Shown here one piece after another: positions 1,490-41,296 of a stretch of DNA of 64,000 bases. The notes beneath the pieces are model-generated. The model made no database searches. It was not told the DNA's origin and was given only the letters and a program-made list of their open reading frames with translations. Both the position numbers and the translations under genes were made by a program. Source of the stretch: a virus; the IMG/VR virus record IMGVR_UViG_3300045988_182799. One strand, given 5' to 3'. The first letter of the stretch is position 1; each line of letters opens with the position of its first letter.

Positions 1490-1514
1490 TCTCGCCGCGT
1501 GGAGGCTACCAGCG
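1490..1514. other. conserved hairpin-loop element, copy 1 (partial)
   Basis: Contains GCCGCGTGGAGGCTACCAGCG, a 15/16 match to the core shared by copies 2-6. The flanking stem is weak. Confidence 0.4.
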
Positions 1515-1523
1515 TAGGGATAT

Positions 1524-1598
1524 TGGAGGAGTATATCGGGGTCGAACCGACGTTATCTGCTTGGAGGGCAGAGGTATTAACCGTTATACGAATACTCC
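1524..1598 (-). tRNA. tRNA-Gly(UCC): tRNA-Gly (anticodon UCC)
   Basis: Reverse complement GGAGTATTCGTATAACGGTTAATACCTCTGCCCTCCAAGCAGATAACGTCGGTTCGACCCCGATATACTCCTCCA. Anticodon loop is CCTCCAA. Confidence 0.85.
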
Positions 1599-2366
1599 AC
1601 AAGATTGCGGGTGAACCCTCATTTAGCCCCGCCATGATGTTCGTTTAGGAGGTAGTCGGCCCCGAACGCCATCTTTACACCACTTGACAATCTTGCGAAT
1701 CTCATCGCTGACTATGCGTGAGAATCCAAGAAAGCGCTTAGGTGTTGGTCAACTTCAAATCTTAGAGCCCTACCGTTACTTCTCTGTCAATTCGGGCAAA
1801 CGGTTTTCGATGGGCTACGTGTGTAAGACTGCGGCTTACTTACCAGCTGCCGTGCAGCAGTCTCGCCTATACGGCTGTGTCGCGTCTGGCTGCGCCCCGG
1901 CTTTACGGGGATGCTCGTACGTCTGCATGCTTGATGGGGCGGGATTTGTTGTTTCCGAACCGTAGTTCGAGAGGAAGCACTCGTCCACACAACTTCCTGG
2001 CCTTTAGGGATACCGCTCACACCGGGAATTGTGATGCGATTCCCACGATTGAAGACTTCGCCATGTCGCGGGTATTGACCGCAACAATGTTGCCCACTGC
2101 TCACCACGAGGAGGTTGTCTTCTGAGCAGTAGCGCGGATTGTGTGGAGCAGTCCGCGCAAGCAGCTTCCGCGTATTCCCTGCTGCTTGAGGGAGCTTGTT
2201 GAGCGTCCGCCGACGCCGTACCCCGGAGGGAACGTCCAAAGGCGTTTTGCAGTACGGAAAAGTTCGGTTTAGAGCCATGAACTGGGCCAAGGACTGCTTA
2301 CCTTGTCTGGTTTGCCCTCCAGATTGGGTTGAGAGCATTCGTCAGCGACTGTAGTAATCGTTGTCC

Positions 2367-2400
2367 ACCACCCGCCGCGTGGAGGCTGTCTCATGGGTGG
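2367..2400. other. conserved hairpin-loop element, copy 2
   Basis: CCACCC-[GCCGCGTGGAGGCTGTCTCAT]-GGGTGG: a 6-bp stem enclosing the conserved 21-nt loop. Confidence 0.55.
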
Positions 2401-2523
2401 CTGGGCACGTCGGATGTTTCCGGCGTGCCCAGATAGGCGCTACCTATCGTGTCGTTCTAAGGCGGGAGCTGCCCGCCATCAGGTTTACCTGTGCATCGGA
2501 TTATCCCTTTCACTTATGCGGCC

Positions 2524-2624
2524 TGTCGGACGTAATTAGTGCATAGGCGTTCTCCTTTGTTCAGATTTTGACATCGGACGCGGTAATTACTGCATCGGAG
2601 TGCCCTCCCTGTTAGATTTCGACC
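2524..2624. repeat. two tandem degenerate ~50-nt repeats inside the ncRNA candidate
   Basis: Unit 1 is TGTCGGACGTAATTAGTGCATAGGCGTTCTCCTTTGTTCAGATTTTGACA. Unit 2 is CATCGGACGCGGTAATTACTGCATCGGAGTGCCCTCCCTGTTAGATTTCGACC. Aligned by eye at roughly 70% identity. Confidence 0.5.
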
Positions 2625-2758
2625 TGTTTAACGTCCGTGTCAGGACGTGTTCTGGATGGGTGGTGTCACACCACCGTGTTCCGTGCTTACGCGTCGCACC
2701 TGTACTCCACTATTACGCCTTATCGCGCGATTGACGTGTTCCCTTGTACTACACCCAG

Positions 2759-2835
2759 TGGCGACTCGTGCCGGACTCGAACCGGCGACCTCCAGCGTGA
2801 CAGGCTGGCGTTCTAACCATCTGAACTAACGAGCC
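2759..2835 (-). tRNA. tRNA-Asp(GUC): tRNA-Asp (anticodon GUC)
   Basis: Reverse complement GGCTCGTTAGTTCAGATGGTTAGAACGCCAGCCTGTCACGCTGGAGGTCGCCGGTTCGAGTCCGGCACGAGTCGCCA. Anticodon loop is CTGTCAC. Confidence 0.85.
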
Positions 2836-2869
2836 ATATATGACCGATTTAGCGTCGCGGCCGAGACGA

Positions 2870-2943
2870 TGGATACGGGGATGGGACTTGAACCCACAAC
2901 CACCAGCGTATGAGGCTGGTAAGCTACCATTGCTATACCCCGT
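2870..2943 (-). tRNA. tRNA-Met(CAU): tRNA-Met/Ile2 (anticodon CAU)
   Basis: Reverse complement ACGGGGTATAGCAATGGTAGCTTACCAGCCTCATACGCTGGTGGTTGTGGGTTCAAGTCCCATCCCCGTATCCA. Anticodon loop is CTCATAC. Initiator, elongator or lysidine-Ile identity cannot be decided by eye. Confidence 0.8.
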
Positions 2944-2992
2944 GTCAATAACAAGACATTGGCCGCAAGAACCTTCAAAACTTGCGTTGTCC

Positions 2993-3027
2993 ATCCCTCG
3001 CCACGCGGAGGCTGTCTTGTGAGGGAT
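2993..3027. other. conserved hairpin-loop element, copy 3
   Basis: ATCCCTC-[GCCACGCGGAGGCTGTCTTGT]-GAGGGAT: a 7-bp perfect stem with a 21-nt loop. Confidence 0.55.
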
Positions 3028-3204
3028 TCTCGGAGATTGCGCAAGGATGTGTAGAACTATACTGGTGTAGTATGATGTGCTGCAAGCAGCTACAATGCAC
3101 ATTCTCCGAGGTTGTTATTACCGTCTATCAAGTGAGGGTATGTAGCACTATAGTAGTTGTGATGTGTGTCGGGATGACACTTACAACACTTGATATTCGG
3201 TATA

Positions 3205-3280
3205 TGGCGGGTCGTACAGGGCTCGAACCTGTGACATCTTGATTAACAGTCAAGCGCTCTGCCGACTGAGCTAACGACCC
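3205..3280 (-). tRNA. tRNA-Asn(GUU): tRNA-Asn (anticodon GUU)
   Basis: Reverse complement GGGTCGTTAGCTCAGTCGGCAGAGCGCTTGACTGTTAATCAAGATGTCACAGGTTCGAGCCCTGTACGACCCGCCA. Anticodon loop is CTGTTAA. Confidence 0.85.
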
Positions 3281-3324
3281 AGAAATAAGACATTTGCCAC
3301 GGGGAGCTCAATACCCGTGTTACC

Positions 3325-3357
3325 GTCACCGCCGCGAGGAGGCTGTCTTATGGTGAC
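3325..3357. other. conserved hairpin-loop element, copy 4
   Basis: GTCACC-[GCCGCGAGGAGGCTGTCTTAT]-GGTGAC: a 6-bp perfect stem with a 21-nt loop. Confidence 0.55.
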
Positions 3358-3450
3358 ATAGCCCGCAAGATGTGTGTATAGCATCGTATCAAGAAGTTAC
3401 GATTCATCAAGCGGGATTTTGGATTTCAACGGAGGAACGATGAAAACCAA

Positions 3451-3526
3451 TGGAGCTTCCGGTGGGACTCGAACCCACAACCTACTGATTACAAGACAGT
3501 TGCTCCGCCTGTTGAGCCACAGAAGC
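3451..3526 (-). tRNA. tRNA-Thr(UGU): tRNA-Thr (anticodon UGU)
   Basis: Reverse complement GCTTCTGTGGCTCAACAGGCGGAGCAACTGTCTTGTAATCAGTAGGTTGTGGGTTCGAGTCCCACCGGAAGCTCCA. Anticodon loop is CTTGTAA; the anticodon stem has one non-WC pair at its base. Confidence 0.75.
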
Positions 3527-3571
3527 ATGGTAGTCGCAAGGAGTAAAACCTTGACGACTAATGTATTATTT

Positions 3572-3599
3572 AGTATATGCGGTTCGCACGATTCGGCAA
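3572..3599 (-). promoter_or_regulatory. sigma70-type promoter of the conserved-spacer family; likely drives the tRNA array
   Basis: Minus strand reads TTGCCG-aatCGTGCGAACCGca-TATACT, with a 16-nt spacer carrying the family core. It lies directly upstream of tRNA-Thr(UGU). Confidence 0.45.
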
Positions 3600-3621
3600 T
3601 ACAGATTATTTGAAGCACATT

Positions 3622-4308
3622 CTATATTTTGCGAATCTGCAAGTCACTGACATCTGCAATGTCTCGGTTTTCTTTCGTGACATCCTTTACCGCGCGTTTC
3701 TTTGACCAGAGAACACTCAGGACGCGATTGCGAAGGTTGTCGTCCTCGATAGTGGATGTCACTTTTACGATTTCTGACTCGCTCAAGTAGACTGTTCCAC
3801 CCTGCTGAATCATGGTCGGATACCCGTTATCACTTCTCAGGACCTTTTTATCAAGGCTATCGTAGGCGTATATCGCGTCGATAAGAAGTTCGGCCGCGAT
3901 TCCGTCCAGCTGTTCTTCCGTGATACCCTGGAAGACGAGCCAGCGGCGCATGAACGAGTCATCCGGGATACTGTCACTGTAAAGAGAGAACAGAGGAGAT
4001 ACCAGTTTGTTGCTCGAATAGCGCTCATGCTCTTCATCGACATTCAGGTTGTCCTGCCAAAGCTTCAGCATCAAGCCGTCGCCGTAGTAGACGAACGTGT
4101 CGTGAAAGAACCCGGACGAGCACACCTTGATATGGTCGATGTTCGCAACTTCCTCACGGTGGCAGAGTACAAAGCGCGTGCCTTCACTCTTGCCGTAGGT
4201 CTCATCGTCCCACTTGACCGTGACCCGTTCCAGCACAAACCTGTCGTTGAGGAGCTTCAGAACTGCTTTGATGGGAAATACTCGCCAGTCCATCAGATGT
4301 TTCTCCAT
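3622..4308 (-). CDS. hypothetical protein (228 aa), last gene of the AAA/zinc-ribbon/nuclease operon
   Basis: Intact ORF overlapping the upstream gene by 16 nt. No recognised motif. Confidence 0.55.
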   Translation of the reverse strand: MEKHLMDWRVFPIKAVLKLLNDRFVLERVTVKWDDETYGKSEGTRFVLCHREEVANIDHIKVCSSGFFHDTFVYYGDGLMLKLWQDNLNVDEEHERYSSNKLVSPLFSLYSDSIPDDSFMRRWLVFQGITEEQLDGIAAELLIDAIYAYDSLDKKVLRSDNGYPTMIQQGGTVYLSESEIVKVTSTIEDDNLRNRVLSVLWSKKRAVKDVTKENRDIADVSDLQIRKI

Positions 4309-4736
4309 TCCTTTGCTATCGGGTCGTACTCGGCCACTTCTTTTTTCGTAACCTTACCGTCCTTTTTATACAGCGTGACGCGCTGGATATAGTTGGCGGC
4401 ATTGGTATCAAGTCGGCGCATGGCTTCGGCAGAAGAGCTCGTCGTAGTGAGACTACGATAAGTCCCGCCGGAGCCCATGACGTCAGGCTCATAGTACCCA
4501 GTCTCGTAGTAGACTGCTATATCCTGTTCGTTAGGAGAAGCGGCATCCAGGATGACCTTGGAGCTTTCCTTGTTGCTACCCGCATAGGAGTTGCGGATGA
4601 TGCGAGCACCACGGTCATTCCCCTGCTGTTCATAGGCTTCGGCAATGAACTCAACGTAGGTCTTGAACTTCTGCTCGTCGCCGTCTCGATGTGCTTCAAT
4701 GAGCTTTCCGAGTGTAACTACGCCAACCACATTCAT
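4293..4736 (-). CDS. hypothetical protein (147 aa)
   Basis: Intact ORF in the operon. No recognised motif. Confidence 0.55.
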   Translation of the reverse strand: MNVVGVVTLGKLIEAHRDGDEQKFKTYVEFIAEAYEQQGNDRGARIIRNSYAGSNKESSKVILDAASPNEQDIAVYYETGYYEPDVMGSGGTYRSLTTTSSSAEAMRRLDTNAANYIQRVTLYKKDGKVTKKEVAEYDPIAKEWRNI

Positions 4737-4812
4737 TGCTTTTACTCCTCTCTTGAACTGTCTACATTATACCATTTTTGGAGTTCCGACTCGTACTGTG
4801 TAGACCAATGAT

Positions 4813-5487
4813 TCATAGATTCTTAACAAACTTACGCGTTTTTACAGGAATGAACCTGAAATGTCCAGTCTTATCTTGTTCGACTCTCCACTTCCACATG
4901 TGTCCCTGCATCCGTTCAGAATACAGCATCTGCTCGGTCGGTAAAAGCAGCCCTATGCCGTAGTATTTCGTAAGAGGTCGGCCTTTTTCGTGGTTTTCAG
5001 CAGCACGAGGAAAGGGGCGTTTTTCCTGCTTTAATTTGTATCCCGCATCGAGCAGTTCTGTGGCATAGAGCGCTGCATTTACTCGATGAAATACATATAG
5101 CATTTGGGTGCTTGAGAAGTAATAGAAGATACAGTTGGCGTTTTTATAAAGCCACCCATCTGAGTGATGGAGCGTTGACTCATTGGTGACAGGATTGCAG
5201 TTGATGACATTACCATTTTCATCAAATAGATAGGAGTCAACGGCCTGTTCCAGGAAGATGTTGCCGGTAGTGTATGTATCTGTTTTAGCATCGAGCGTTA
5301 CCGTGCGGCCATCTTTGCGATGAATCAGGAAGTCAATATCCTGTTCTTGATACGTTTTGATGCTTCTCACATCTTCGTAGCTCTCAAAGCTCAACCTTCC
5401 CAATTCGCAGCTCTTTTTTACGTAGTCAATTGCCACCTGTTCTCCGAGTTTTCCGACCGCAAGCTGGTCTTTCATGTTATAAGCCAA
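4813..5487 (-). CDS. PD-(D/E)xK-fold nuclease-like protein (YraN/Hjc-like N-terminal domain)
   Basis: N-terminus GKLGEQVAIDYV...QDIDFLIHRKDGRTVTLDAKTD matches the GxxGE...(E/D)IDLI...(D/E)xK pattern of the YraN/restriction-endonuclease-like fold. The C-terminal 120 aa are uncharacterised. Confidence 0.55.
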   Translation of the reverse strand: MAYNMKDQLAVGKLGEQVAIDYVKKSCELGRLSFESYEDVRSIKTYQEQDIDFLIHRKDGRTVTLDAKTDTYTTGNIFLEQAVDSYLFDENGNVINCNPVTNESTLHHSDGWLYKNANCIFYYFSSTQMLYVFHRVNAALYATELLDAGYKLKQEKRPFPRAAENHEKGRPLTKYYGIGLLLPTEQMLYSERMQGHMWKWRVEQDKTGHFRFIPVKTRKFVKNL

Positions 5488-5493
5488 GAAGTA

Positions 5494-6234
5494 TCACCTC
5501 CGCACTTTGCGGCAGGCGGGGCACTTAGGACCATACTTGCATACGGTAAAGAGCAACGGCGTCCATTCTTCGTCCTTGCCATAGCCGCAATCGGGACATA
5601 CCAAAGCAATGCGTTCACCGCTTCCGGCGGTCAGTTCATCGGGCCGAAACTTATTGGCGGTCGGATGCCACATAGCTGCAATCTGAGGGTATCCAACGCT
5701 GATGATAGGCTTCGTCGTGCATTTGCGAATTCGCTTCATCCGGTTGTGAGAAGCATTCAACCTGGCGCATTGCGGGCAGCCCGTATGATTCACGCCGCTG
5801 CCGCAAGCGAAAGCCAGGAGCGGATGCCACTCTCCGTTTTGACCATAGCCGCAGGTCTTGCAGACAAGATAGACATGCAGACCGCTGCCGGATGTGATTT
5901 GGTCAGGCTGGATGGTATTTAGCGTAGGATGCCACTGTTCGCCAATTTCAGGATGAACTGTAGCTACATCATTCACACCTTTGACCACGATTCGTCCAGC
6001 ACAAACCGGACAGCCGCCTTTTGTACGACAGACAGAAGAAAGCACCGGCCGCCATTCACCGTTTTTTCCGTATCCACACCGTGGACAAATCAAGGCAATG
6101 CGACGGCCGCTTCCACACGTGATTTCATCAGGACCACAGTCATTGGCAGTCGGGTGCCACATGGAAGCAATCTCAGGATGTTCTTCCGCTACCGTGCCGC
6201 GAGGCTCATAGAGCTTAATCTCAAATTCACGCAT
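5494..6234 (-). CDS. protein made of three tandem zinc-ribbon repeats (WHPT.N...GSG...CxxCGYG.NGEW...GCPxC)
   Basis: Three roughly 80-aa repeats each carry the W-H-P-T-x-N, GSG, C-x2-C-GYG and C-P-x-C signatures, i.e. 12 Cys in four-Cys clusters. The start overlaps the AAA ATPase stop by 8 nt. Confidence 0.7.
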   Translation of the reverse strand: MREFEIKLYEPRGTVAEEHPEIASMWHPTANDCGPDEITCGSGRRIALICPRCGYGKNGEWRPVLSSVCRTKGGCPVCAGRIVVKGVNDVATVHPEIGEQWHPTLNTIQPDQITSGSGLHVYLVCKTCGYGQNGEWHPLLAFACGSGVNHTGCPQCARLNASHNRMKRIRKCTTKPIISVGYPQIAAMWHPTANKFRPDELTAGSGERIALVCPDCGYGKDEEWTPLLFTVCKYGPKCPACRKVRR

Positions 6235-7138
6235 CCTGGTTCTCCTTCTCTTGCTGTTCGATGACCCAGCTTACAATATGGTCCGTGCAAGCTTTCGTTA
6301 CATTGCTGGGCGTATAATTGTGGTCAATGTGAGAGAGCAGGTCTTCAATTTCTTTCTTGCTCGCTGTATAGCCAACCGAAATGAAGAACTTCTCGCATAA
6401 GTCATGCGCAGACTGAGTATCCAGCATGCGAACACGATGAAGGAAGCTGAACCGACGGAACAGTGCAGCGTCAAGCTGGTCTTCCCTGTTCGTGGTTCCG
6501 ATAAGAATAACGTCATTGGGCAGCCGGTCAAGTTCCTGCATCAGAGCAATCGTCACGCGGCTCATCTCTGCTACATCGTCTCTGCCGCCGCGCTTCATGC
6601 CGATAGCATCGATTTCGTCGAGGCACAACACACAGGGGCTGCGTGTAGCATAGTCAAAGACCAGACCAATGTTCTGCTGTGTCTTGCCAAGAGCCGAGCT
6701 GATAAGACCGGAAAATTTGAGATATACGAACGGCAGGTCTGCTTTGTGGGCAATGTATCTTGCCAGTTCGGTTTTACCAGTTCCAGGCTCACCGCTCAGG
6801 AGCAAAGAACTGGTATAGTGAACGCCCATTTCTTTGAGTTTGAGGGACGCTTTTCTCGTTTTGAGAATCTTTTCGATGACTGCTTTCTCCGATTCACGAA
6901 TCAGGAATCTCTGCTCCGGGAAATCAGATACATCTTCTGCCACCAAAAGGCCCTGCATGTTGAACGGCAATTCAATGAATCGCGGTTCAGCATTGTTGAG
7001 CTTTGCCAGGCAGTTCGTCTTGAATTGCTCATCCCTCGCAGCGGTGATACTGTTCAGAATGATTTTTGCTTGCATCTGTGCTTTGCGAATGTCGCCTTCT
7101 GCTACATAGCGAAGGAGCATGCGGTTGTTATCATTCAT
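6227..7138 (-). CDS. classical AAA ATPase (single AAA domain)
   Basis: Walker A LSGEPGTGKTELA, Walker B VLCLDEIDAIG, sensor-1 IGTTN and the arginine-finger region DAALFRRF. An N-terminal ~100 aa domain is of unknown function. Confidence 0.85.
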   Translation of the reverse strand: MNDNNRMLLRYVAEGDIRKAQMQAKIILNSITAARDEQFKTNCLAKLNNAEPRFIELPFNMQGLLVAEDVSDFPEQRFLIRESEKAVIEKILKTRKASLKLKEMGVHYTSSLLLSGEPGTGKTELARYIAHKADLPFVYLKFSGLISSALGKTQQNIGLVFDYATRSPCVLCLDEIDAIGMKRGGRDDVAEMSRVTIALMQELDRLPNDVILIGTTNREDQLDAALFRRFSFLHRVRMLDTQSAHDLCEKFFISVGYTASKKEIEDLLSHIDHNYTPSNVTKACTDHIVSWVIEQQEKENQDA

Positions 7139-7195
7139 GGTTTATTTACCTCTATAAATGAAAAGACCCACCAAACGGCAGGTCTTGATTCTTTG

Positions 7196-8394: not shown

Positions 8395-8482
8395 TGTTGA
8401 GTCCTCCTTGCAAATAAAAAAGCAGGCTCTTAAAAGAACCTGCTTTCGTGGTCGTTAATACACTTTTTGGTCTACAATATTC

Positions 8483-8510
8483 AGTTTACTCAATTCGCAC
8501 AAACGCGCAA
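8483..8510 (-). promoter_or_regulatory. promoter a of the conserved-spacer family
   Basis: Minus strand TTGCGC-gttTGTGCGAATTGag-TAAACT. Confidence 0.5.
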
Positions 8511-8530
8511 GAAGGCAACATGAAACGGTT

Positions 8531-9024: not shown

Positions 9025-9030
9025 TGATTT

Positions 9031-9058
9031 TATTGTATTCAATTCGCAATGAAAAGCA
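9031..9058 (-). promoter_or_regulatory. promoter b of the conserved-spacer family
   Basis: Minus strand TTGCTT-ttcATTGCGAATTGaa-TACAAT. Confidence 0.5.
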
Positions 9059-9611: not shown

Positions 9612-9635
9612 GGTGGTATTCTCCTTTTTGAAAAA

Positions 9636-13285: not shown

Positions 13286-14059
13286 CTAAGCAGACAGCGT
13301 GGCTCTGACGACATAGCGTTGGTTTGTGGTTTGGTAGTATCCGAACGGATAGCAGGTATACATCACGAGCCGGTCGGTGGTGTCCGAAAGGTCCACAAGA
13401 ATGGTTCCATCATCGGCCACCACAGTGCCCGCGTCTGCCGTTACCGTTCCCGGCCTGGCAGAATCTACCGTATATACGTATTGTCCGTAGTCTGTAGTGA
13501 CCACAAATTCGTCACCAATACTTACGTATTGAAGCAAAGCCAAAGTGCTGTCGTTATGGGAGCAAAGAAGATGACAACCACCGTAGCCTACCTGATAGGA
13601 GCCTGTGTACTGATATACACCGCTGCGGCTGTCGAGGAGAGCTTGGTCATCGCCCCAGATAAGGGAAGCGTTGATACCTACGCTGCTGCATGAGACTGTC
13701 CCGTAGGAAGCGCCATACGTGGCAGGCACCACATCACCCCATACGCTGGTCGTGAGTGGAGCCGGAGTATCTGTAGGGACCGGTGTTGGTGCTTCTGTCG
13801 GTTCAGGCGTCTGTGTAGGAGTAGGCTCTGGTGCAGCTGTTGGTTTCGACAAAGGAGCATGAGGTGTGGGTTCCGGGATGCTGTCGGTGCTTAGATAAAT
13901 CGCATCATTCGCTGTCTCAGCCGTTGCCGCTGATTCCGTTGTGCTGGCAAAAGAGTCTGGTGGTACTGATACGGGAGTAGATGCACTACTCGCGCAAGCT
14001 GTGGCAAAGGTCAGTACGCCTACTGCCACAGCAGTTATCACTGCTTTTGTCCGTCTCAT
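13286..14059 (-). CDS. sortase-family transpeptidase-like protein with a Pro/Thr-rich linker
   Basis: N-terminal signal plus lipobox (TFATAC), PT-rich linker, catalytic-like LVMYTCYPF (TLxTC motif), and downstream Arg (YVVRATL). Confidence 0.55.
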   Translation of the reverse strand: MRRTKAVITAVAVGVLTFATACASSASTPVSVPPDSFASTTESAATAETANDAIYLSTDSIPEPTPHAPLSKPTAAPEPTPTQTPEPTEAPTPVPTDTPAPLTTSVWGDVVPATYGASYGTVSCSSVGINASLIWGDDQALLDSRSGVYQYTGSYQVGYGGCHLLCSHNDSTLALLQYVSIGDEFVVTTDYGQYVYTVDSARPGTVTADAGTVVADDGTILVDLSDTTDRLVMYTCYPFGYYQTTNQRYVVRATLSA

Positions 14060-21012: not shown

Positions 21013-22020
21013 TTACATGACACGTCGCAGATAGGACTTGTTGATTTCTACCAGCAACTCCTCAACCTTCCCAAAGTCCGGCTTGGTCGGGAGCATAGTT
21101 TCCTTCACATCTCGCTGGAATCTTGATTCGAGCCGGTCAACAAGCTCAAAGAATTCGGGAGCGTATGCCCCATCTTGGTACATGTATTTACCGTTGCGGA
21201 TAGCAAGCAGTTCCTCGCGTTCCTTGTCCCGGCGGGCGATGATGTGTCCTTGCTCCAGAATGTCAAAGGCCGTGTAGTATAGCCGTACAAGGTGCATTGC
21301 ATGTTTATTGATGTGGGCAGCATCTTTTTGCGCTTTCGGATGCTGCGGCTGTTCATACTGGTCGATAGTCGTTGTCAGACCTCGAAGCAGGGACTTGAGA
21401 GAGTTGACAGGATAGTTACTCAGATTTCCAGAAATCAAGAGAGGATGTTTGCCTTCAGAATCGACATCTTTACTGATGCTGATTTCAAAGACATCATCTT
21501 TACCCTGACCTGCAATAAGTCGTTCGAGGCTTCTCTTTTCAAACTTGTTTTTGAGCGGCTCAGGAGAAGCGCCATTCCGCAGTAGTCCCATCTGCAAGCG
21601 TCTGAGCTGGTCGTTCGCAAAGCCACCATAGCTGTATGCAATGCGCCGGGTCAGGAAAAGTTCCTTGTTATCCAGCAGCATCTGTCCTTCTGGAGTCATG
21701 TTCACATACAGCTTCGGGTCGTTGCCAAGAAGCTCAATGACATTAGGGTTACATTGGACAAGCAGGTTGACAAATTTATTGATGGCGTAGATGACGGTAT
21801 CCGTCTGATTATTGATGACTTGCTCAAAGCGATTAAACCCCAAGATTTCAGGCGAACCAGCCGCACCACGGATGTCAACATCTGAACCCTCAACATTCGT
21901 ACCATAGGCGTGGCTGCCGCCGATAGTCAAAAACAGGATGTTATCTCCCAGATGCTTGTTGGTGCGTAAAAAATCATATTCTTCACGCTGGAGAATCGCT
22001 TTCAATTCTGCGTTTGTCAT
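21013..22020 (-). CDS. pol-beta-superfamily nucleotidyltransferase (335 aa)
   Basis: Canonical NTase motif LFLTIGGSHAYGTNVEGSDVDIRG (GS-x9-13-DxD) with a helical C-terminal domain. Substrate cannot be assigned by eye. Confidence 0.75.
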   Translation of the reverse strand: MTNAELKAILQREEYDFLRTNKHLGDNILFLTIGGSHAYGTNVEGSDVDIRGAAGSPEILGFNRFEQVINNQTDTVIYAINKFVNLLVQCNPNVIELLGNDPKLYVNMTPEGQMLLDNKELFLTRRIAYSYGGFANDQLRRLQMGLLRNGASPEPLKNKFEKRSLERLIAGQGKDDVFEISISKDVDSEGKHPLLISGNLSNYPVNSLKSLLRGLTTTIDQYEQPQHPKAQKDAAHINKHAMHLVRLYYTAFDILEQGHIIARRDKEREELLAIRNGKYMYQDGAYAPEFFELVDRLESRFQRDVKETMLPTKPDFGKVEELLVEINKSYLRRVM

Positions 22021-34291: not shown

Positions 34292-34470
34292 GTTTCACCT
34301 CTTTCAGTTCAAGCCATTTTCATCATACTTGTCGCTCTTGCCAAGATTACAGATGCTGCAAAGAGTCCGCAGGTTGAATAGCCTGAAAGTCCTTTATGCA
34401 AATATAGATAGAATTCGATATACGATGCCGACTGCAACAAGCATAAGCACCGGAATCCAGCTACCGATTG

Positions 34471-34818
34471 TCATGGGCTGGCTTCCCTGCAGCAAAATGC
34501 TCTTTTTGGGTTCCCGCTCGGAAAATAGAACATCCTTGGCTCCGGGTAGTCATTCTGTTGGCGGCGCTTTGTATATATCCTGCCTTCAAACTCAAATTGA
34601 TATACGACAGAATAGTTGTAGTTCTTATAGGTGGGTTCACTGGAGTCATACGGCAAGTTCCGGATTTTGACAGGCGTAGCCATAGCACAGTAACCTTTAT
34701 CTTTTGCTGCCTGAACCTGCTCTTCGTATGTGTTGAACCAGTGAGGATGCTTGGCTACCGGTATGCCGATACAGATGATGACAATGAAGGTTGAGATAGC
34801 GAATAAAGCGATATTCAT
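34471..34818 (-). CDS. membrane protein (115 aa)
   Basis: N-terminal TM segment LFAISTFIVIICIGIPV. Confidence 0.5.
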   Translation of the reverse strand: MNIALFAISTFIVIICIGIPVAKHPHWFNTYEEQVQAAKDKGYCAMATPVKIRNLPYDSSEPTYKNYNYSVVYQFEFEGRIYTKRRQQNDYPEPRMFYFPSGNPKRAFCCREASP

Positions 34819-36092
34819 TGCCAGTCCCTCCCATAGACTCTGATGTCAGAAGGATATTCGGTCATCATCTTATATTCTTCATCATCAGCCTTCACATCGC
34901 TCCATGTCCACTTACCATCCGCAAAAATAATGACATGTCCCCTTTGAAGCTCTGAGACGTATTTTGCGTTCTTTTCGCTCAAGTGGCATGCTTTTGCCAC
35001 ATTGGGAACCAAATGGCTGAATATTTTGTGGTATACCTGTACATCTGAATCAGCCATGATTTCATGGAGAAACGCATCGTCTATACCGTCGTTAAACACG
35101 CTGGTAACGGTGATTACGGTGCAGTCACAGGGCATCGCGTTCTGGCAGAGGTGTTTGCTCCAGCTCAAAGTGGTGTCACGCTCCAGCATAAACGGAGCAT
35201 TTTTCATAACGTCACGGTTCTCGCCAAAGAATACATCCCGCATCAGAATAGCCTTCTTGTCCGCCTCGTCCTGCATACGCTCGCTGAGGATTTCAAAGCA
35301 ATAGGCCATCATAAAGTCCTTGGCCGTACTGTCTTTTTCGATTTGTCCCCTGTATTTCATAAAGTCCAGCACAAGGAAAGGACTATCCCAATCAACATCC
35401 GTCTTATGGTTGAACCAGCCATAAGGTCCATCTACAAACTGTGAAAGCACGTTTGTGAAGTCATCAAGTTCTTTCAGATGTGCAAGCTTAATAGTCGTAT
35501 AAAAGTCTTCTATAGTCGGGAACTCTTTGTACTGGTCTGAGTCTTCCACGAGAAGACTGGCATTGTCATAGGTGATGCCTTTGACCTTATAAAGGCGGTA
35601 GAGTAACGCATCAAGCAATCCCGCTTGCTCTGGTGTCATCTCAGGATACATTGCTCTGAACACTGTGAGCAGTTCCTGTACTTTTCTTGTTAGAACGGAA
35701 CACTTACGGGAGCCTTCTTTCGGCTTGCGAATGTCGAACAAGTTGATATGTGAGTTTTCTTCTCCTATAATCACGTTCTTACCGCCAAGCTGGTCGCACA
35801 TATAGCCGTACTCTTCACGGCTCAACCCATCCGTTAGGATAGTAGCTTGTGCTCCTTGCTTGCAAAGGCGGTAAAGAATCAACTTGCCAGTAAAATCCTT
35901 GCCCTGGCCGTGGCTTCCGACAATGGAGATGACTGAGTTTTGATGCTTGGAAGCGTCAGTCATGTTGACGACTATATCGGCATCCTCTTTTCCTGTCCAG
36001 CACTTTGCAATGCTGATACCGCCTTCTTCTTGAATCGGTATGATTTCAGGAACATTAGCGGGCGCTTGCTTCTTTTTGAAAAACGGAAACAT
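34815..36092 (-). CDS. P-loop ATPase of the VirD4/TraG coupling-protein type (no N-terminal TM)
   Basis: Walker A IVGSHGQGKDFTGKLIL resembles the APTRSGKGVGxVIP motif of T4SS coupling proteins; a Walker B-like hhhhD is present. Start placed at MFPFFKKK (RBS GGGAGGG); the upstream GTG overlaps promoter j. Confidence 0.5.
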   Translation of the reverse strand: MFPFFKKKQAPANVPEIIPIQEEGGISIAKCWTGKEDADIVVNMTDASKHQNSVISIVGSHGQGKDFTGKLILYRLCKQGAQATILTDGLSREEYGYMCDQLGGKNVIIGEENSHINLFDIRKPKEGSRKCSVLTRKVQELLTVFRAMYPEMTPEQAGLLDALLYRLYKVKGITYDNASLLVEDSDQYKEFPTIEDFYTTIKLAHLKELDDFTNVLSQFVDGPYGWFNHKTDVDWDSPFLVLDFMKYRGQIEKDSTAKDFMMAYCFEILSERMQDEADKKAILMRDVFFGENRDVMKNAPFMLERDTTLSWSKHLCQNAMPCDCTVITVTSVFNDGIDDAFLHEIMADSDVQVYHKIFSHLVPNVAKACHLSEKNAKYVSELQRGHVIIFADGKWTWSDVKADDEEYKMMTEYPSDIRVYGRDWQ

Positions 36093-36126
36093 GTCATTTT
36101 CCCTCCCAATATGTATCTGATTTTTA

Positions 36127-36154
36127 TTATCTGCAATTCGCACAATTCATCAAA
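36127..36154 (-). promoter_or_regulatory. promoter j of the conserved-spacer family
   Basis: Minus strand TTGATG-aatTGTGCGAATTGca-GATAAT. Confidence 0.55.
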
Positions 36155-36218
36155 TTTTCGCAGATACGAAAAAAGCAGCCACCTCCCGAAGGAAGCGGCT
36201 GCGTATCACTAATCCGAA

Positions 36219-37103
36219 TTAGAACTTGAAGAATCGAGGCACAATACCATCTTTGTCCATGTCCAGAATCATGGCAGCGAAAGTATCCATCTGAATCGGC
36301 ACAAACTCAGCCGTATAGCTGAGCGAGCCGCCGGACTCCTCCGCAATGTCGAGCATCGTCTTGAGGAATGCTGTAAAGTCCTGAATCTCGTTAGGTTTGA
36401 GGGTGACGCTCGTGCAGATGGAAAGGCAACTCTCATCCACGTCTGCCACATCGCCTTCCTCGCGGCCAAAGACGCTCCTGACAGACTGAACTGCAGCCAG
36501 CATCTTATCGACCTGCTGAACGGTGAAGGTATCTCCCGCTTCCAGCTCCATCTCGAAGGTGTAGCAGAACCAGAAAGGAATATCCTTTACCGCTTCTTCC
36601 GACACATAATCGGGACTGTCGCACAGCGTCTTGCCATCAAAGGTCAGCATCGACACATGGCTGTCCACGTCGTAGTATTCAAGGCCCTGATACCGGACCG
36701 ATTCAGCCCCGCAATCCTGCAAAATATCGCTCCAGAATGCAGAGCCGTAGAAGATGCTGTAGCTGAAGTAGTGAATCATGCCGTAAGACAGAAACGCTTC
36801 AACGTCCACATCTTCGAGGATACGCGAAACGGCATCCTCCACTTCCGGCGTGCTCTGCCAGCTGGTATCGAGACCATCAAGCCCCTTCCCGCCGGTCTTG
36901 TTGTGAATGTCCAGAGCAGTTTTCCCGTCAAGTTTGATGACCATTGCGCTAAGACTCATGGACTCGATGCTGGCGGTATCGAGGAACTGGCGCAAATACC
37001 GCGCCAAATCTTTACGTACCTGCTCGGCACCCTTCTCACCTTTCCCGATAATGATGCGCTCAATAGCGACCAATTCAGTGCTCATAGTATCTCCTTTACT
37101 CAA
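36219..37103 (-). CDS. acidic hypothetical protein (294 aa)
   Basis: Intact ORF, strongly Asp/Glu-rich. Confidence 0.55.
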   Translation of the reverse strand: MSKGDTMSTELVAIERIIIGKGEKGAEQVRKDLARYLRQFLDTASIESMSLSAMVIKLDGKTALDIHNKTGGKGLDGLDTSWQSTPEVEDAVSRILEDVDVEAFLSYGMIHYFSYSIFYGSAFWSDILQDCGAESVRYQGLEYYDVDSHVSMLTFDGKTLCDSPDYVSEEAVKDIPFWFCYTFEMELEAGDTFTVQQVDKMLAAVQSVRSVFGREEGDVADVDESCLSICTSVTLKPNEIQDFTAFLKTMLDIAEESGGSLSYTAEFVPIQMDTFAAMILDMDKDGIVPRFFKF

Positions 37104-37270
37104 TATGGACAGGCAGCTTGATTTCTGTCTCGTTCTGTTTCAGAGGCGGCAAATCCTGTACGTACTCAGCAATCTTCTCAGCCAGTTCGGCAGCGCTCAG
37201 CATTTTGATTTCCGGCGGAACAATGCAGCGGTCATCAACGACATAGTTCTTAGTGCCCATAGGCATTCCC

Positions 37271-37771
37271 TCACAGTGCAGCCAGATAGTGAATCGCCAT
37301 CTTTGCAAACCCGATAGCAGATACAAAGCACCATCCTGCTTTTCCAGCCCAGATAACCTTTGTATAGATGGGTAATACCTTTCGGACCGGCTCCAATTTC
37401 CCGAATGCAAGAGGAATTGCGGATACCATCAGCAGCGAAATGTCAAACGCTAAACAAACAAACACAGTTAAACAGTAGTTCAGCATGAGTTGAGCTTCGA
37501 CCTTATTGACTTCAATTAAGCGCAAAGCCAACAAAGCAAATGCCGTTGAAATCACACAGCTAATGACAAGGATTCGTACCGTATGGTTCAGAGTATCCTC
37601 GGGTGATAGGTATTTTCTTTTGCCGCAGCAATAGGTTACTTCTTGGAAGGCTTTACGCCCAAAATACAAGTTATAAACACCATTTACTGCGAAAAGGATA
37701 GCTGTTATGGAGAACAGCGCCACTCTGCAAATAGCAACGATACCCATAGGAATCAAAAGGAGAACTTGCAC
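37271..37771 (-). CDS. polytopic membrane protein (166 aa, ~5 TM)
   Basis: Hydrophobic profile. The downstream small ORF 37096-37260 is a possible coupled peptide. Confidence 0.55.
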   Translation of the reverse strand: MQVLLLIPMGIVAICRVALFSITAILFAVNGVYNLYFGRKAFQEVTYCCGKRKYLSPEDTLNHTVRILVISCVISTAFALLALRLIEVNKVEAQLMLNYCLTVFVCLAFDISLLMVSAIPLAFGKLEPVRKVLPIYTKVIWAGKAGWCFVSAIGFAKMAIHYLAAL

Positions 37772-38640
37772 TCACGGCGCTCGCGGCCATTGCCGCACCA
37801 ATAGTGCCGCCAGGTGGGAGCCTTACCGTTCGCTTCCTTCTTGTAACGCTCCATCAGATAATGGCCCACCACAAAGGTCTTGATATTGACTTTCTTGGTC
37901 TGGCCCTTGAACGTAAAGACAGGACGTTCGTCCTTTTTCGGGCTGTCCAGACGAATCTCCGCGCCTTTGCTGGCAAGGTAGTAGGCACACAGCATTGCGA
38001 GACGGACATAGGGCGTGCCTTCGCCGTAAACAGACGGGATAGCGTCCAGCGTTTCAGGAATAGTGATGTCATCTTTATCGCGGGTCGAAGATGCCTTTTC
38101 AATGTACTGTTTCGTGCTGCGAGTCGCCTCCGTCAAGCTCTGACCCTCCTTAATCCAAGCGGGAAGGGACAGGAACGCGAAGTTCTCCTTCTCGTTCTGG
38201 ACGGGGCCGACAAGGACGATGCCAACGAAGGTGTCATCCGTCTTTGTATCGAACTCGATATGCACGAACATGCCGCAGTAGTCCACGCTGTTGTACAGAG
38301 GCACATAGAAGTTCTTGAACGGCAGGCGCTCCAGCACCTCGCGATGGAGGGTGAGGTCATCGGTATCCATCAGCAGTTCCAGAAAATCCTTGCCGAAATC
38401 GTAGATGACCTTGGTCTGATTCCAGTTGGCGATGGTGTAGCACGGGAAAATCTGGGCAGCCAGCACCTTTTCAAAGCCAGGCTGCTGCATCTGCTGGGCA
38501 ACACGCAGGCACTGAAGCGTAGCGCCCTTGGTGAATTCGTCCAGCGTCTTGCCGCAGGGGTCCTCAAAATCGAAGCCGGTACGGGTCGAGCGAGTAACGG
38601 CATTGGCGGTGAGTGCGATACGAACCTGTTCAGAAGTCAT
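37753..38640 (-). CDS. hypothetical protein (295 aa)
   Basis: Intact ORF with strong RBS ATTTTGGAGGATATTT. Confidence 0.6.
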   Translation of the reverse strand: MTSEQVRIALTANAVTRSTRTGFDFEDPCGKTLDEFTKGATLQCLRVAQQMQQPGFEKVLAAQIFPCYTIANWNQTKVIYDFGKDFLELLMDTDDLTLHREVLERLPFKNFYVPLYNSVDYCGMFVHIEFDTKTDDTFVGIVLVGPVQNEKENFAFLSLPAWIKEGQSLTEATRSTKQYIEKASSTRDKDDITIPETLDAIPSVYGEGTPYVRLAMLCAYYLASKGAEIRLDSPKKDERPVFTFKGQTKKVNIKTFVVGHYLMERYKKEANGKAPTWRHYWCGNGRERRECKFSF

Positions 38641-38724
38641 AAATATCCTCCAAAATATGTTATTTGTTTTCGGCTTCCCGATGGTTTGTTAGAAAGCAAA
38701 GTTGTCTGCCAGCCGTAGCTGTTG

Positions 38725-38772
38725 CCCGCTGCCCGCCTCGTGGAGGCCCCTTTGCATAAAGGCAGCTGCGGG
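38725..38772. other. conserved hairpin-loop element, copy 5 (variant)
   Basis: CCCGCTGCC-[CGCCTCGTGGAGGCCCCTTTGCATAAA]-GGCAGCTGCGGG. Lies immediately 3' of the stop of the 38784-39380 gene. Confidence 0.45.
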
Positions 38773-38783
38773 GAGAACCCCGC

Positions 38784-39380
38784 TCAAGATTTGATGTTTA
38801 GGCGTCTATTGATTTCTTTTACGCCGAGTTTCCGAGATGTAAATACAGGCTTTACCTCTTGCCCGTGCTGTTTCACAAACCGTTCGAGCACTGTCCATGA
38901 CGGCTCGCTTCCATCCTCAAAGGAATACGGGTCAAGGTTCAGAAAGAGCCAGGTCTTGGTGTGTTCCCTGCCGGCCAGATAGTGAATGAGTGATGCCGTA
39001 ATGGCAAGAACCCCCTTATGCCATGTGTAGGTCATAGTTCGGCTCACATCATGGACAATAAGTTGGGGCTGCTTTCCCATCGCCATATCGACTTCGATGG
39101 TATGCGCCACAACGGGCTTATCGTCCGTAATCTTATATTGATGCAGAATCATCGGAATGCGGCCCGGAACGATACGGTCATGGTCCAGTACAAAGTCCGC
39201 GTACTCCCCTGTCACATCAAAGACAATGATTCGGTCTGAGATGGTACGCAGCGTCTTGGCAATCTGACGCTTACACCAGAACGTCTTCCCTACCCCTTCA
39301 TTGGCAGATACGAGAGTATAGTAGCTGGTTTCAATGATATTAGGTTCTATCCGTTTCATTCCTTGATGTACTCCTCGCAA
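38784..39380 (-). CDS. small P-loop NTPase (198 aa)
   Basis: Walker A SANEGVGKTF and Walker B RIIVFDVTGE. Confidence 0.6.
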   Translation of the reverse strand: MRGVHQGMKRIEPNIIETSYYTLVSANEGVGKTFWCKRQIAKTLRTISDRIIVFDVTGEYADFVLDHDRIVPGRIPMILHQYKITDDKPVVAHTIEVDMAMGKQPQLIVHDVSRTMTYTWHKGVLAITASLIHYLAGREHTKTWLFLNLDPYSFEDGSEPSWTVLERFVKQHGQEVKPVFTSRKLGVKEINRRLNIKS

Positions 39381-39886
39381 AACTCCAGTTTGCGTTCTGC
39401 ATAACTCTCATCACCCGTAACATTGACCAGAAATTCTTGCAATTCCGCTTCGAGCTTCTTCTCGGTCAGAGTGGCGAGCTTTTCGTTATACTCTTTCGGC
39501 GGCCAATCAATGGCACAGAAAACCATCGTGTTGCCATCGTAATCAAACGTACTGAAAAAGCTCCCGGAGGGATAGCCGTAACACTTTTCAAAAACGTGAC
39601 ACAGGGCGTTTGCATAGATGATATGGGCTTCTTCCTTCAAGCAGTCACTTCCGTAGTCCTTAGCCCGGTGCAGATTATACCAATCACCGGCTGCCGCAAC
39701 GAATTTCATGCCCAGCGGCCAGGCTTCATACCCTTCGAGGTCTTCGTTTTTGAAAGACGGCACTAAGGCAAGAACTTCTTCTTTAGTCGGAACATATCTC
39801 GCCAGAAAGTCCTCGTTGTAATGGACTTCCTCACCGTCTCCAAGGTTAATACCTTTCCCGGTGTTGTTTACGTGATACCACCCCAT
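39356..39886 (-). CDS. hypothetical protein (176 aa)
   Basis: Intact ORF. Confidence 0.5.
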   Translation of the reverse strand: MGWYHVNNTGKGINLGDGEEVHYNEDFLARYVPTKEEVLALVPSFKNEDLEGYEAWPLGMKFVAAAGDWYNLHRAKDYGSDCLKEEAHIIYANALCHVFEKCYGYPSGSFFSTFDYDGNTMVFCAIDWPPKEYNEKLATLTEKKLEAELQEFLVNVTGDESYAERKLEFCEEYIKE

Positions 39887-40487
39887 TAGTTGTTTGCCCC
39901 TCCATTTGCATTTTGATTAGCAGAACTGCGCTTGTTGCAGACAGCAGTGAAAGAAATCCGCACAGAAACGATGCCCAAAAATTCTCGGCGTCGGAGCTGC
40001 TGTCTACGCTGATATAGTACGGATATGCGTTCATGTCTCCAATTGCTTCCTGATATTCCTCCAGGTGTTCTGCCGGTACTGCCAGGATATTGCCTTTAAT
40101 AGGAGCATGGCTATAGATATAGGAGCCTTTTTCGCTATCATCAAACTCGGCCGCGATGATATAATCATCACCACTTTTGGTGTATACCTTTATCGGGTAG
40201 AAGGCTGTTACGTAGTCGCCGGACGGCTCATCACTTGCGGCCTGATGCCGTTCCCACATGATGATGTTGGATACAATGTTATAGTCTTCCGAATCCAGCG
40301 CAATGGATTTTTTCTCATACTGCTCCAATTGAGAAGGCTCAACCGTAGCCAGGTTCGTTCTGATAACCTGCTGCATGTAGGAAATCGGTACGAATGCAAA
40401 CAGTACCGCCATCACCAACATAAGAAGTATCTGCATAATGGCTTTCGTTTTCTTTTTCATAGTTATCTCCCGTGTGCTGCATACCAA
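39846..40487 (-). CDS. membrane-anchored protein (213 aa)
   Basis: N-terminal signal/TM segment AIMQILLMLVMAVLFAFVPI. Confidence 0.5.
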   Translation of the reverse strand: MVCSTREITMKKKTKAIMQILLMLVMAVLFAFVPISYMQQVIRTNLATVEPSQLEQYEKKSIALDSEDYNIVSNIIMWERHQAASDEPSGDYVTAFYPIKVYTKSGDDYIIAAEFDDSEKGSYIYSHAPIKGNILAVPAEHLEEYQEAIGDMNAYPYYISVDSSSDAENFWASFLCGFLSLLSATSAVLLIKMQMEGQTTNGVVSRKQHRERY

Positions 40488-40806
40488 GCATAGAAGCCAT
40501 CGTATTGCTCCCGCCCTGGTCTGTCTTCGCTCAAACTCGCGGGTATCTACAAATGACTATACCGTCCGGCGTGCAAGCCTCTACCACAGGCTTCTTTTTC
40601 GGCTTCTTTGAGTTTCTCAGGAAATTCCCGTTCTTCATTCTCGTTTTCTCGGAAGGCTTCCGCAAACGCTTTGTACAAGTCGTAAGTATCTTTTTCAGGA
40701 TTAAAAGGCACGGTCCTATAATACTCCGTTATGAACCATTTTTTACCATCGATGCTTGTCAGATAAAATCTTGTATTTGGGATTGGGATACTTCCCATCA
40801 TGTTAC

Positions 40807-41199
40807 TCACCATCCTCCACGAGATAAGCGAACCCACTCTGTCCTTGTCCCGCTGTAATACGGAGTATGAGTATACGCTTCGTAGGCCCATTTGCGCTCT
40901 TGCTTTTCCCTCAATGCTTGCTCCTCCTTCAGTTCCTTGACTGTGGCGATGAGCTTGTTTTCTTTGCCTTCCGCTTCACCTTTGGCAAAAGCGGCTTTTT
41001 GGGCTTCGTCAATACGCTGGTATCTGTTCTTTCGTTCTTTCTCGATATAGAGTAGTCCATTGGCTACTGCATCGAGAAATGCTTGTGTCTCAAAGGCAGA
41101 AATAGGTTCTTTTCCATCCTTATCTTTGGATACACAGAAAAAGCCGTTTTCGTCATAGCAGATGAAATAGGGAGAGTTTGGGACCTGTTGTGTTTTCAT
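40807..41199 (-). CDS. hypothetical protein (130 aa)
   Basis: Intact ORF. The downstream ORF 40547-40891 probably starts at the internal MMGSIP (~40800). Confidence 0.45.
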   Translation of the reverse strand: MKTQQVPNSPYFICYDENGFFCVSKDKDGKEPISAFETQAFLDAVANGLLYIEKERKNRYQRIDEAQKAAFAKGEAEGKENKLIATVKELKEEQALREKQERKWAYEAYTHTPYYSGTRTEWVRLSRGGW

Positions 41200-41259
41200 G
41201 GCTTTCTCCCCTTCTTTTTCGTTCTGAAGACTATTTGCCAGGAGCCTTTCCCGTTGCCC

Positions 41260-41296
41260 GCCGCTTGCCCCGTGGAGGCTGTCTTCGTTGAGCGGC
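41260..41296. other. conserved hairpin-loop element, copy 6
   Basis: GCCGCT-[TGCCCCGTGGAGGCTGTCTTCGTTG]-AGCGGC. Lies immediately 3' of the flotillin gene stop, followed by a second small hairpin GCAGCCC-TCAAT-GGGCTGC. Confidence 0.5.

Follow-up and report, generated by a model that had tools for sequence, protein, structure and literature searches.

Repeats in the tRNA array and at two operon junctions of a 64-kb IMG/VR contig are predicted to be hepatitis delta virus-like self-cleaving ribozymes that retain helix P4

The IMG/VR record IMGVR_UViG_3300045988_182799 was analysed as one stretch of 64,000 nucleotides (nt), hereafter the window, and carries a family of repeats in its tRNA array and at two operon junctions. 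We propose, with a probability of about 90%, that these repeats are hepatitis delta virus (HDV)-like self-cleaving ribozymes that retain helix P4, are close to the Faecalibacterium prausnitzii family RF02682 and are co-transcribed with tRNAs and genes from the minus strand. Most likely, long transcripts of a plasmid-like element of gut bacteria are thereby cut into tRNA, non-coding RNA and mRNA pieces. The analysis shows a fold supported by covariation, conserved catalytic positions, the strand that is used and the genomic contexts, and the proposal builds on these. The repeat family is real and statistically solid, and is explained by a known ribozyme class, not by a new kind of system.

A first-pass annotation of this DNA had described a hairpin with a variable stem around a fixed 21-nt loop, and its central observation, a repeated motif between unrelated stems, holds. 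The motif AYRAGACAGCCTCCNCGNGGC is found on the minus strand without mismatch at 2374-2394, 3000-3020 and 3331-3351, and with two and three mismatches at 41267-41287 and 2103-2123, respectively. These five matches (three mismatches or fewer) compare with 0.01 expected from shuffles. The inverted repeat around the motif measures 6-7 bp and is different for each copy. One copy, at 2096-2130 (stem ACTGCTC/GAGCAGT), had been overlooked, and the copy at 38725-38772 is complete but divergent, having P3 and L3 in common with the others and a different P2 (GCAAAG/CTTTGC). Moreover, the limits of the element had been drawn too narrowly: conserved, covarying sequence continues for 40-55 nt past the ends originally assigned, downstream on the minus strand. 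Below, the six complete copies are called A to E and G, and a truncated one is called F.

In each copy, the stem and the 21-nt “loop” make up the 5′ half of a larger minus-strand structure, a nested double pseudoknot of 70-80 nt. From 5′ to 3′, the unit consists of the 5′ arm of the stem; (N)1-3 AAGACA; GCC-UCCNCGN-GGC; the 3′ arm of the stem; GG(G/A)CAA; a variable hairpin; G-C-N-A-A; and UGUCUU. Its topology (P1, J1/2, P2, P3-L3, P1′, P1.1, P4, J4/2, P2′) is that of the HDV ribozyme. Features that define this family are two nested pseudoknots, a cleavage site at the first nucleotide of P1 and a core composed of L3 and J4/2 (PMC4908430). The variable stem corresponds to P1, and the loop carries the 5′ strand of P2, P3 (GCC/GGC) and L3 (UCCNCGN). 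P2 forms between AAGACA and UGUCUU, 45-56 nt further downstream, and P1.1 arises where the loop's CC, part of CCUCC, pairs with the GG just after the stem. Beyond P1 come the variable P4 hairpin, an invariant catalytic C and the 3′ strand of P2. The 21 nt that had been taken for an exposed loop, read for its sequence, are thus nearly all engaged in P2, P3 and P1.1.

To quantify covariation, we built our own covariance model, R1, from 18 diverse copies and gave it only P1, P3 and the base of P4. Alignment of 97 R1 matches from a 29-source subset yielded 70 distinct sequences from gut IMG/VR contigs, in which pairs were counted with the pseudoknots written in and compared with 500 shuffles and with slid-partner controls. 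Paired cells amounted to 90.3%, against 73.6% in shuffles and 35-52% with slid partners. Both sides had changed at 21 of the 23 pairs, and none of the 500 shuffles reached the observed values on any measure. Covariation supports all five helices, including the pseudoknot that is absent from the model.

At the level of single helices, P1 is paired in 99% of cells with all seven pairs covarying, which bears out the earlier claim that the stems covary around a conserved core; its first pair is G-C in 34, G.U in 22 and A-U in 14 of the 70 sequences. P2 is paired in 74% of cells and again covaries at 7/7 pairs, despite register slips where J4/2 is 1 nt longer. Since P2 was not part of R1, this count is an unbiased test. 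The two P2 strands change together, as in ACAAGACA/TGTCTTGT of copy B, ATAAGACA/TGTCTTAT of copy C and GCAAAG/CTTTGC of copy E, and in the GATG/CATC, AACA/TGTT and TCGACA/TGTCGA pairs of relatives. P3 is paired in 100% of cells, with G-C replaced by A-U in 20/70 sequences. P1.1 is C-G in 67-68 of the 70, with U-A compensation at both pairs (2 sequences each), and P4 is paired in 92.5%, with all 4 modelled pairs changed on both sides. The J4/2 cytosine, counterpart of HDV C75, is present in 70/70 distinct sequences and is followed by N-A-A. L3 is a 7-nt U-C-C-N-C-G-N loop in which U, CC, C and G are nearly invariant, as are the GG of P1.1 and the two J4/2 adenines.

P1 also reveals which strand is selected. 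It holds G.U in 34 cells and A.C in only 4, so that the selected structure is that of the minus-strand RNA. The minus strand is the transcribed sense, as all seven tRNAs and almost all long open reading frames (ORFs) lie on it. This agrees with the earlier placement of an RNA-level element on the gene-sense strand, and the same asymmetry opposes the plus-strand interpretation offered alongside it, in which GGAGG would precede mini-ORFs. A U-tract was sought after P1 and after the upstream hairpins described below, and none was found; intrinsic terminators had therefore been excluded correctly.

The gathering score of RF02682 (HDV-F-prausnitzii) is 44 bits, and its matches were seen with E-value thresholds instead. 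Six units, all on the minus strand, match the model over its full length (positions 1-74/74) and score 29-43 bits, which corresponds to E-values of 1.3e-4 to 0.23 for the whole window: copies D (41225-41296, 43.0 bits), B (2952-3027, 41.5 bits), G (2049-2130, 40.6 bits), E (38696-38766, 34.3 bits), A (2335-2401, 33.7 bits) and C (3286-3357, 29.0 bits). At gathering thresholds, Rfam reported tRNAs and no ribozyme in the whole window; this default scan is silent because all six units score below 44 bits. They are near-threshold relatives of RF02682, not formal members. Three units also match RF00094 (HDV), more weakly, at 21-30 bits against a gathering score of 50 (29.8 bits for copy G). With R1, run with filters off over the whole window, six matches of 43-71 bits (E 1e-8 to 2e-15) stand apart from the next two, at 14.4 and 13.5 bits. 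The 14.4-bit match (43291-43348) was rejected as an ordinary terminator-like hairpin with a U-tract and no ribozyme. A covariance-model search of this kind had been suggested by the first-pass annotation; with R1, it returned 201 matches in 70 sources.

Outside this group of contigs, the element was all but absent from the genomes and collections searched. A pattern scan of IMG/VR found 119 stretches, about 70 of which have the same motif between other, unrelated stems such as GCCGCTC/GAGCGGC, GCTGCTC/GAGCAGC, CTACGC/GCGTAG and CCACAC/GTGTGG. The same kind of scan over one genome per species (185,579 species) gave 41 stretches, of which only one combines the stem with the downstream motif. This sole true copy lies on a contig (L145) of a rumen Clostridia metagenome-assembled genome. 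Searching plasmids and phages with ribozyme D by blastn yielded chance matches only, and megablast of the window gave a tRNA match alone among phages and nothing among plasmids.

In the tRNA array, copy C ends 4 nt before tRNA-Asn (3280) and copy B 6 nt before tRNA-Met (2944), while A and G lie within a 1.16-kb non-coding stretch that reaches from tRNA-Asp to tRNA-Gly. The other two copies sit between co-directional genes: D follows a Band7/flotillin gene, whose stop codon is at 41331-41333, and precedes the next gene, which has its ATG at 41197-41199, and E lies between a stop codon at 38784-38786 and an ATG at 38638-38640. The stop codon is separated from the ribozyme by 34 nt for D and 17 nt for E, and 25 and 55 nt, respectively, lie between the ribozyme and the ATG. 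The nearest upstream tRNA is 93, 177, 357 or 628 nt away from the window copies, or there is no tRNA nearby. Among the 70 distinct relatives, 16 end at most 8 nt before a tRNA 5′ end, and in 8 the predicted cut falls 0-2 nt past a tRNA 3′ end; 31 are located within tRNA arrays but adjoin no tRNA, and 15 have no tRNA nearby.

All six complete copies, each on the minus strand, can be resolved into the same set of helices. Copy C (3285-3357; R1 57.9 bits, E 2e-12; predicted cleavage 3358/3357) has P1 at 3352-3357/3325-3330 (6 bp), P2 at 3344-3351/3285-3292, P3 at 3341-3343/3331-3333, L3 at 3334-3340, the GG of P1.1 at 3323-3324, P4 at 3314-3317/3300-3303 and the catalytic C at 3296. Copy B (2951-3027; 70.7 bits; predicted cleavage 3028/3027) comprises P1 3021-3027/2993-2999, P2 3013-3020/2951-2958, P3 3010-3012/3000-3002, L3 3003-3009, GG 2991-2992, P4 2981-2986/2964-2969 and the catalytic C 2962. 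For copy A (2331-2401; 61.9 bits; predicted cleavage 2402/2401), the corresponding positions are P1 2395-2401/2367-2373, P2 2387-2392/2331-2337 (with one bulged nt), P3 2384-2386/2374-2376, L3 2377-2383, GG 2365-2366, P4 2358-2363/2343-2348 and catalytic C 2341. Copy G (2051-2130; 57.5 bits; predicted cleavage 2131/2130) pairs 2124-2130/2096-2102 in P1, 2116-2122/2051-2056 in P2, 2113-2115/2103-2105 in P3 (ACC/GGU) and 2079-2085/2065-2071 in P4, with L3 at 2106-2112, GG at 2094-2095 and the catalytic C at 2060. An ORF at 1787-2338 (183 aa, minus strand) was dismissed as very likely spurious: it has no Shine-Dalgarno (SD) sequence, starts in the P2 3′ strand/J4/2 of ribozyme A and contains the whole of ribozyme G.

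At the operon junctions, copy D (41226-41296; 64.9 bits; predicted cleavage 41297/41296) shows P1 at 41290-41296/41260-41266 (6 bp and a C.A mismatch), P2 at 41280-41286/41226-41231, P3 at 41277-41279/41267-41269, L3 at 41270-41276, GG at 41258-41259, P4 at 41249-41253/41239-41243 and the catalytic C at 41237. The most divergent copy, E (38696-38766; 43 bits, E 9e-9; predicted cleavage 38767/38766), forms P1 from 38760-38766/38728-38734, P2 (GCAAAG/CUUUGC) within 38748-38755/38696-38701, P3 from 38745-38747/38735-38737 and P4 from 38718-38721/38710-38713; its L3 spans 38738-38744, its GG 38726-38727 and its catalytic C is 38708, in a long J4/2.

A second structure abuts many of these units on their 5′ side. 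On the minus strand, a hairpin precedes copy A (2402-2431, -20.6 kcal/mol) and ends exactly at the predicted cleavage site, and those before G (2132-2158, -12.6 kcal/mol), D (41298-41316, -13.4 kcal/mol) and E (38768-38783, -11.7 kcal/mol) end 1 nt before it; that of E begins right after the stop codon. The same search at all six copies found none before B and C. Across 55 distinct upstream contexts, a stable hairpin (dG of -10 kcal/mol or lower) lies 0-2 nt before the predicted cleavage site in 41, compared with 13 in control windows 60 nt further upstream (Wilcoxon p = 1.7e-6). In 12 homologues of the A-type hairpin, 6 of 11 pairs have changed on both sides and 90.8% of cells are paired. Relatives that lack the hairpin and sit at tRNA 3′ ends have the tRNA acceptor stem in its place. 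The hairpin could possibly insulate folding of the ribozyme from upstream sequence or protect the new 3′ end. A comparable stable helix directly 5′ of the cleavage site is the reported upstream hairpin P(-1) of the genomic HDV ribozyme, and terminator-type 3′ hairpins are a further parallel, whereas here the hairpin ends 0-1 nt from the predicted scissile bond and has no U-tract.

By analogy with HDV, each unit would cut its own backbone immediately before P1, with catalysis by the invariant J4/2 cytosine and a metal ion that it binds, and would leave a 2′,3′-cyclic phosphate on the upstream RNA and a 5′-OH on the downstream RNA, which the ribozyme would head. A processing site, one option in the first-pass annotation, agrees with such a predicted ribozyme. 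Judging from genomic context, the likely role would be co-transcriptional segmentation of long one-strand transcripts, with cleavage parting tRNA precursors from non-coding spacers in the tRNA array, and adjacent cistrons at the two operon junctions. At 4/6 window copies and in most relatives, the conserved GC-rich hairpin would form the 3′ end of the upstream product; in some relatives, a tRNA acceptor stem would do so. The downstream fragment would begin with the compact ribozyme, which RNase P would then remove where a tRNA follows. In gut phages, HDV-like ribozymes adjoining tRNAs are established and active in vitro (PMC10879173).

Several points weigh against our interpretation. Self-cleavage and its effect on RNA stability or expression are inferred, and all six RF02682 scores are under the curated gathering score. 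Cleavage could also destabilise the downstream RNA, since the 5′-OH product of the Bacillus subtilis glmS ribozyme is reportedly degraded by RNase J1. At the structural level, P1 of copy C has only 6 bp, copy D has the C.A mismatch at the inner P1 pair, copy A and its homologues carry a bulge in P2 (one nt in A) and copy E has two extra G between P2 and P3 as well as its long J4/2. Copies B and C have no J1/2 spacer, and their P2 complementarity reaches P1. As the spacer is absent, the outer P2 pairs of B and C would have to fray; in another HDV-like ribozyme, activity was abolished when the spacer was missing (PMC4908430).

Such small blemishes in several copies might suggest that the fold is kept for a non-catalytic job, as a compact 5′ structure that protects the downstream RNA or enhances its translation, or as a binding module for a protein or RNA polymerase, with cleavage weak or incidental. 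In line with this, the ribozymes at both operon junctions lie 25-55 nt before the next start codon, and a role in helping translation to start has been proposed for the HDV-like ribozymes found in retrotransposons (PMC6765202). We consider it improbable, because the catalytic C never varies and L3, P1.1 and J4/2 are kept as in active HDV ribozymes, which is the pattern predicted by selection for catalysis. Moreover, many copies are followed by tRNAs or non-coding spacers, for which translation plays no part.

Far less likely still are the functions proposed initially. A loop exposing CCUCC as an anti-SD sequence, or being read by a protein or RNase, would account for the presence of CCUCC and for the GGAGG-type ribosome-binding sites of the genes preceded by D and E. 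However, pairing and covariation (C-G to U-A, 2+2 distinct sequences) link the CC to the GG immediately behind P1, the remainder of the “loop” is paired in P2 and P3, and 55/70 distinct copies lie in tRNA arrays and not before an SD. The anti-SD idea is contradicted by this intramolecular covariation and by the many copies that precede tRNAs or non-coding spacers without SD. We give equally little credence to a mobile miniature repeat, resembling repetitive extragenic palindromes (REP) or miniature inverted-repeat transposable elements, or to a DNA-level site such as a cruciform promoter or recombination site. Many copies per element in direct orientation are what such a repeat would produce, and copy F is truncated exactly at a gene insertion, so that the repeats may act as recombination junctions. 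Against this, the excess of G.U over A.C shows that selection acts on RNA from a single strand, the covariation of a long-range pseudoknot is not explained by any function of the DNA, neither target-site duplications nor terminal repeats are present, and the element is nearly absent from the 185,579 species genomes (the single true copy) and from plasmid and phage collections. Promoters of phage RNA polymerase, N4-type hairpin promoters, PeSL-type promoter/terminator cassettes, integron attC sites and IS200/REP hairpins were likewise dropped on the downstream covariation and the G.U asymmetry.

Relic F (1494-1520, minus strand), rightly called partial in its earlier delineation at 1490-1514, gives a local R1 match of 13.5 bits to P3/L3 only. 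It keeps the 5′ strands of P1 and P2, P3 and L3, while the 3′ strand of P1, P4, J4/2 and the 3′ strand of P2 are replaced by a ribosome-binding site and the start of a 64-aa ORF. The relic aligns with intact ribozymes on two related contigs (L038:829-899 and L015:3556-3626) from P1 through the 3′ strand of P3 and then diverges; it lies directly after tRNA-Gly (1524-1598), the site of an intact ribozyme in relatives. The ORF (1280-1474) encodes a Cys-rich protein behind a strong ribosome-binding site and occupies the 3′ half of the ribozyme that is intact in relatives. As it stands in for this half, recombination or insertion inside ribozyme F is suggested. A broader and quite tentative idea is that hairpin and ribozyme together form a dedicated RNA punctuation for a large gut element transcribed from a single strand, replacing terminators and host RNases, that sets the ends of tRNA precursors, of a structured RNA of about 450 nt and of selected mRNAs. 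Upstream products would then carry a 3′ hairpin and a cyclic phosphate, and the cores might serve as recombination joints that shuffle tRNA and gene cassettes, as relic F suggests.

The RNA of about 450 nt is the spacer at 1599-2049 (minus strand), between ribozyme G and tRNA-Gly. It is conserved in the related contigs L013, L015, L020 and L079, and its 3′ 235-335 nt are also found in L034, L038 and L072. Among 8 sequences, compensatory changes are seen at 22 pairs of a consensus structure; the folding energy of the spacer is unremarkable (z = -0.27), and no Rfam match was found even at E ≤ 10. The spacer may be an RNA that is set free by ribozyme cleavage at one end and by RNase P at the other. 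Two further minus-strand spacers between tRNAs and ribozymes, 2402-2758 (357 nt) and 3028-3204 (177 nt), are non-coding, and an ORF at 2749-3102 overlaps two tRNAs and is presumably spurious. Related contigs have up to 22 tRNAs in 14.5 kb (L115), and in L020 (372-771) and L034 (1410-1809) a tmRNA gene (tag peptide DNNRYASPIAA) lies within the same tRNA array.

Judging by its genes, the carrier appears to be a conjugative, plasmid-like element of Oscillospiraceae. Their products include a PrgI/VirB4-type ATPase, DUF5697, a sortase, ImpB and a second VirB4-like ATPase. The regions 13286-14059, 34815-36143, 45672-46376 and 59005-62552 hold the sortase, the two VirB4-like ATPases (one PrgI-fused, 890 aa), DUF5697 and ImpB/MucB, in an order of conjugative-type genes that resembles Vescimonas fastidiosa pMM35_02. 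In PLSDB, the closest relatives of the PrgI/VirB4-type ATPase are on plasmids of Subdoligranulum variabile and V. fastidiosa. Neither the whole S. variabile plasmid OY725878.1 nor the 42 kb scanned of pMM35_02 contains a ribozyme by R1 or a tRNA by ARAGORN. Related contigs, 35-390 kb long, are filed in IMG/VR as viral; given the genes of conjugative-plasmid type, the viral label may be mistaken, or the element may combine both natures. At 43321-43352 (minus strand), the site of the rejected R1 match, a 12-bp GC-rich hairpin followed by AUUCUUUUU resembles an ordinary intrinsic terminator; the carrier thus uses conventional terminators as well. Protein family scans of neighbouring genes revealed no RNA-binding or nuclease partner for the ribozyme element. 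Elsewhere, 21013-22020, 52522-53364 and 53361-54149 encode an RlaP-type nucleotidyltransferase (PF10127 “RNA repair pathway”, 66 bits) and two calcineurin-like metallophosphoesterases, one of which is weakly similar to ApaH and to the bacterial Pnkp phosphatase domain. It is speculation that these enzymes could heal 2′,3′-cyclic phosphate ends made by the ribozymes. In phages with theta ribozymes, tRNA nucleotidyltransferase and an RNA ligase are reportedly enriched (PMC10879173).

These observations go somewhat beyond published descriptions in placing P4-containing copies as 5′ leaders of tRNAs and at operon junctions, in the hairpin that abuts them upstream and in the density of copies. A dense set of predicted self-cleaving ribozymes escapes standard Rfam annotation here, as every copy falls just below the cut-off. 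The HDV-like ribozymes of gut mobile elements are not confined to the minimal theta type at tRNA 3′ ends; forms with P4 also occur immediately 5′ of tRNAs, on either side of non-coding spacers and in the gaps that separate protein genes. The hairpin abutting the predicted cleavage site could explain both reliable folding in long transcripts and a stabilised upstream RNA. In practical terms, the 70 natural variants offer a covariation set for immediate use and a supply of compact, insulated ribozyme parts.

Comparing the units with known ribozymes reveals the closest similarity to the F. prausnitzii ribozyme. RF02682 has the same architecture, including P4, shares the motifs ...CC-UC(C/U)NCGN-GG..., (G/A)GGCAAC and GGC-NAA, and has a consensus P1 identical to that of relatives (GCUGCUC/GAGCAGC). 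It differs in P2 and in L3, where the consensus UCUaCGU + AG contrasts with UCCNCGN + GG here. The hosts are likely of the same order, since the conjugation genes here are most similar to those of Oscillospiraceae plasmids. HDV-like ribozymes occur widely, and among bacteria the F. prausnitzii ribozyme (drz-Fpra) is known as a single copy upstream of glmM (PMC6765202, PMC8256844), whereas here six copies share 64 kb of an extrachromosomal element and are distributed over a tRNA array and operon junctions.

With genomic HDV (RF00094), the units share the nested double pseudoknot and a catalytic C followed by NAA. When set against its consensus (uCagCCUCCuCGcUGGc ... GGGCAACa ... GGCuAAuGgGaC), L3 UCCUCGC + GGGCAAC is identical letter for letter, and the stretches CAGCCUCCUCGC, GGGCAAC and GGC-NAA agree with the Rfam consensus in the same way. 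HDV has a G.U first P1 pair, as do 22/70 sequences here. In contrast, L3 has 7 nt instead of 8, P4 is short and the element belongs to bacterial DNA, not to a circular RNA replicon.

The placement in a tRNA array is reminiscent of theta ribozymes, minimal HDV-like ribozymes of gut phages that lack P4 and have their cleavage site at tRNA 3′ ends (PMC10879173). Both are HDV-like, occur on gut contigs of the IMG/VR type and are embedded in tRNA clusters. The 8/70 relatives with a predicted cut 0-2 nt after a tRNA 3′ end have a theta-like position, and relic F lies at such a place. However, P4 is kept and covaries here, none of the six intact window copies has its predicted cut within ±5 nt of a tRNA 3′ end, and two lie directly 5′ of tRNAs. 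Predicted hosts of theta ribozymes are about 90% Bacteroidota (PMC10879173), while the host here is likely of the Oscillospiraceae. Thus, as P4 is kept and no copy in the window is predicted to cut at a tRNA 3′ end, we regard the six units not as theta ribozymes but as relatives of the F. prausnitzii type.

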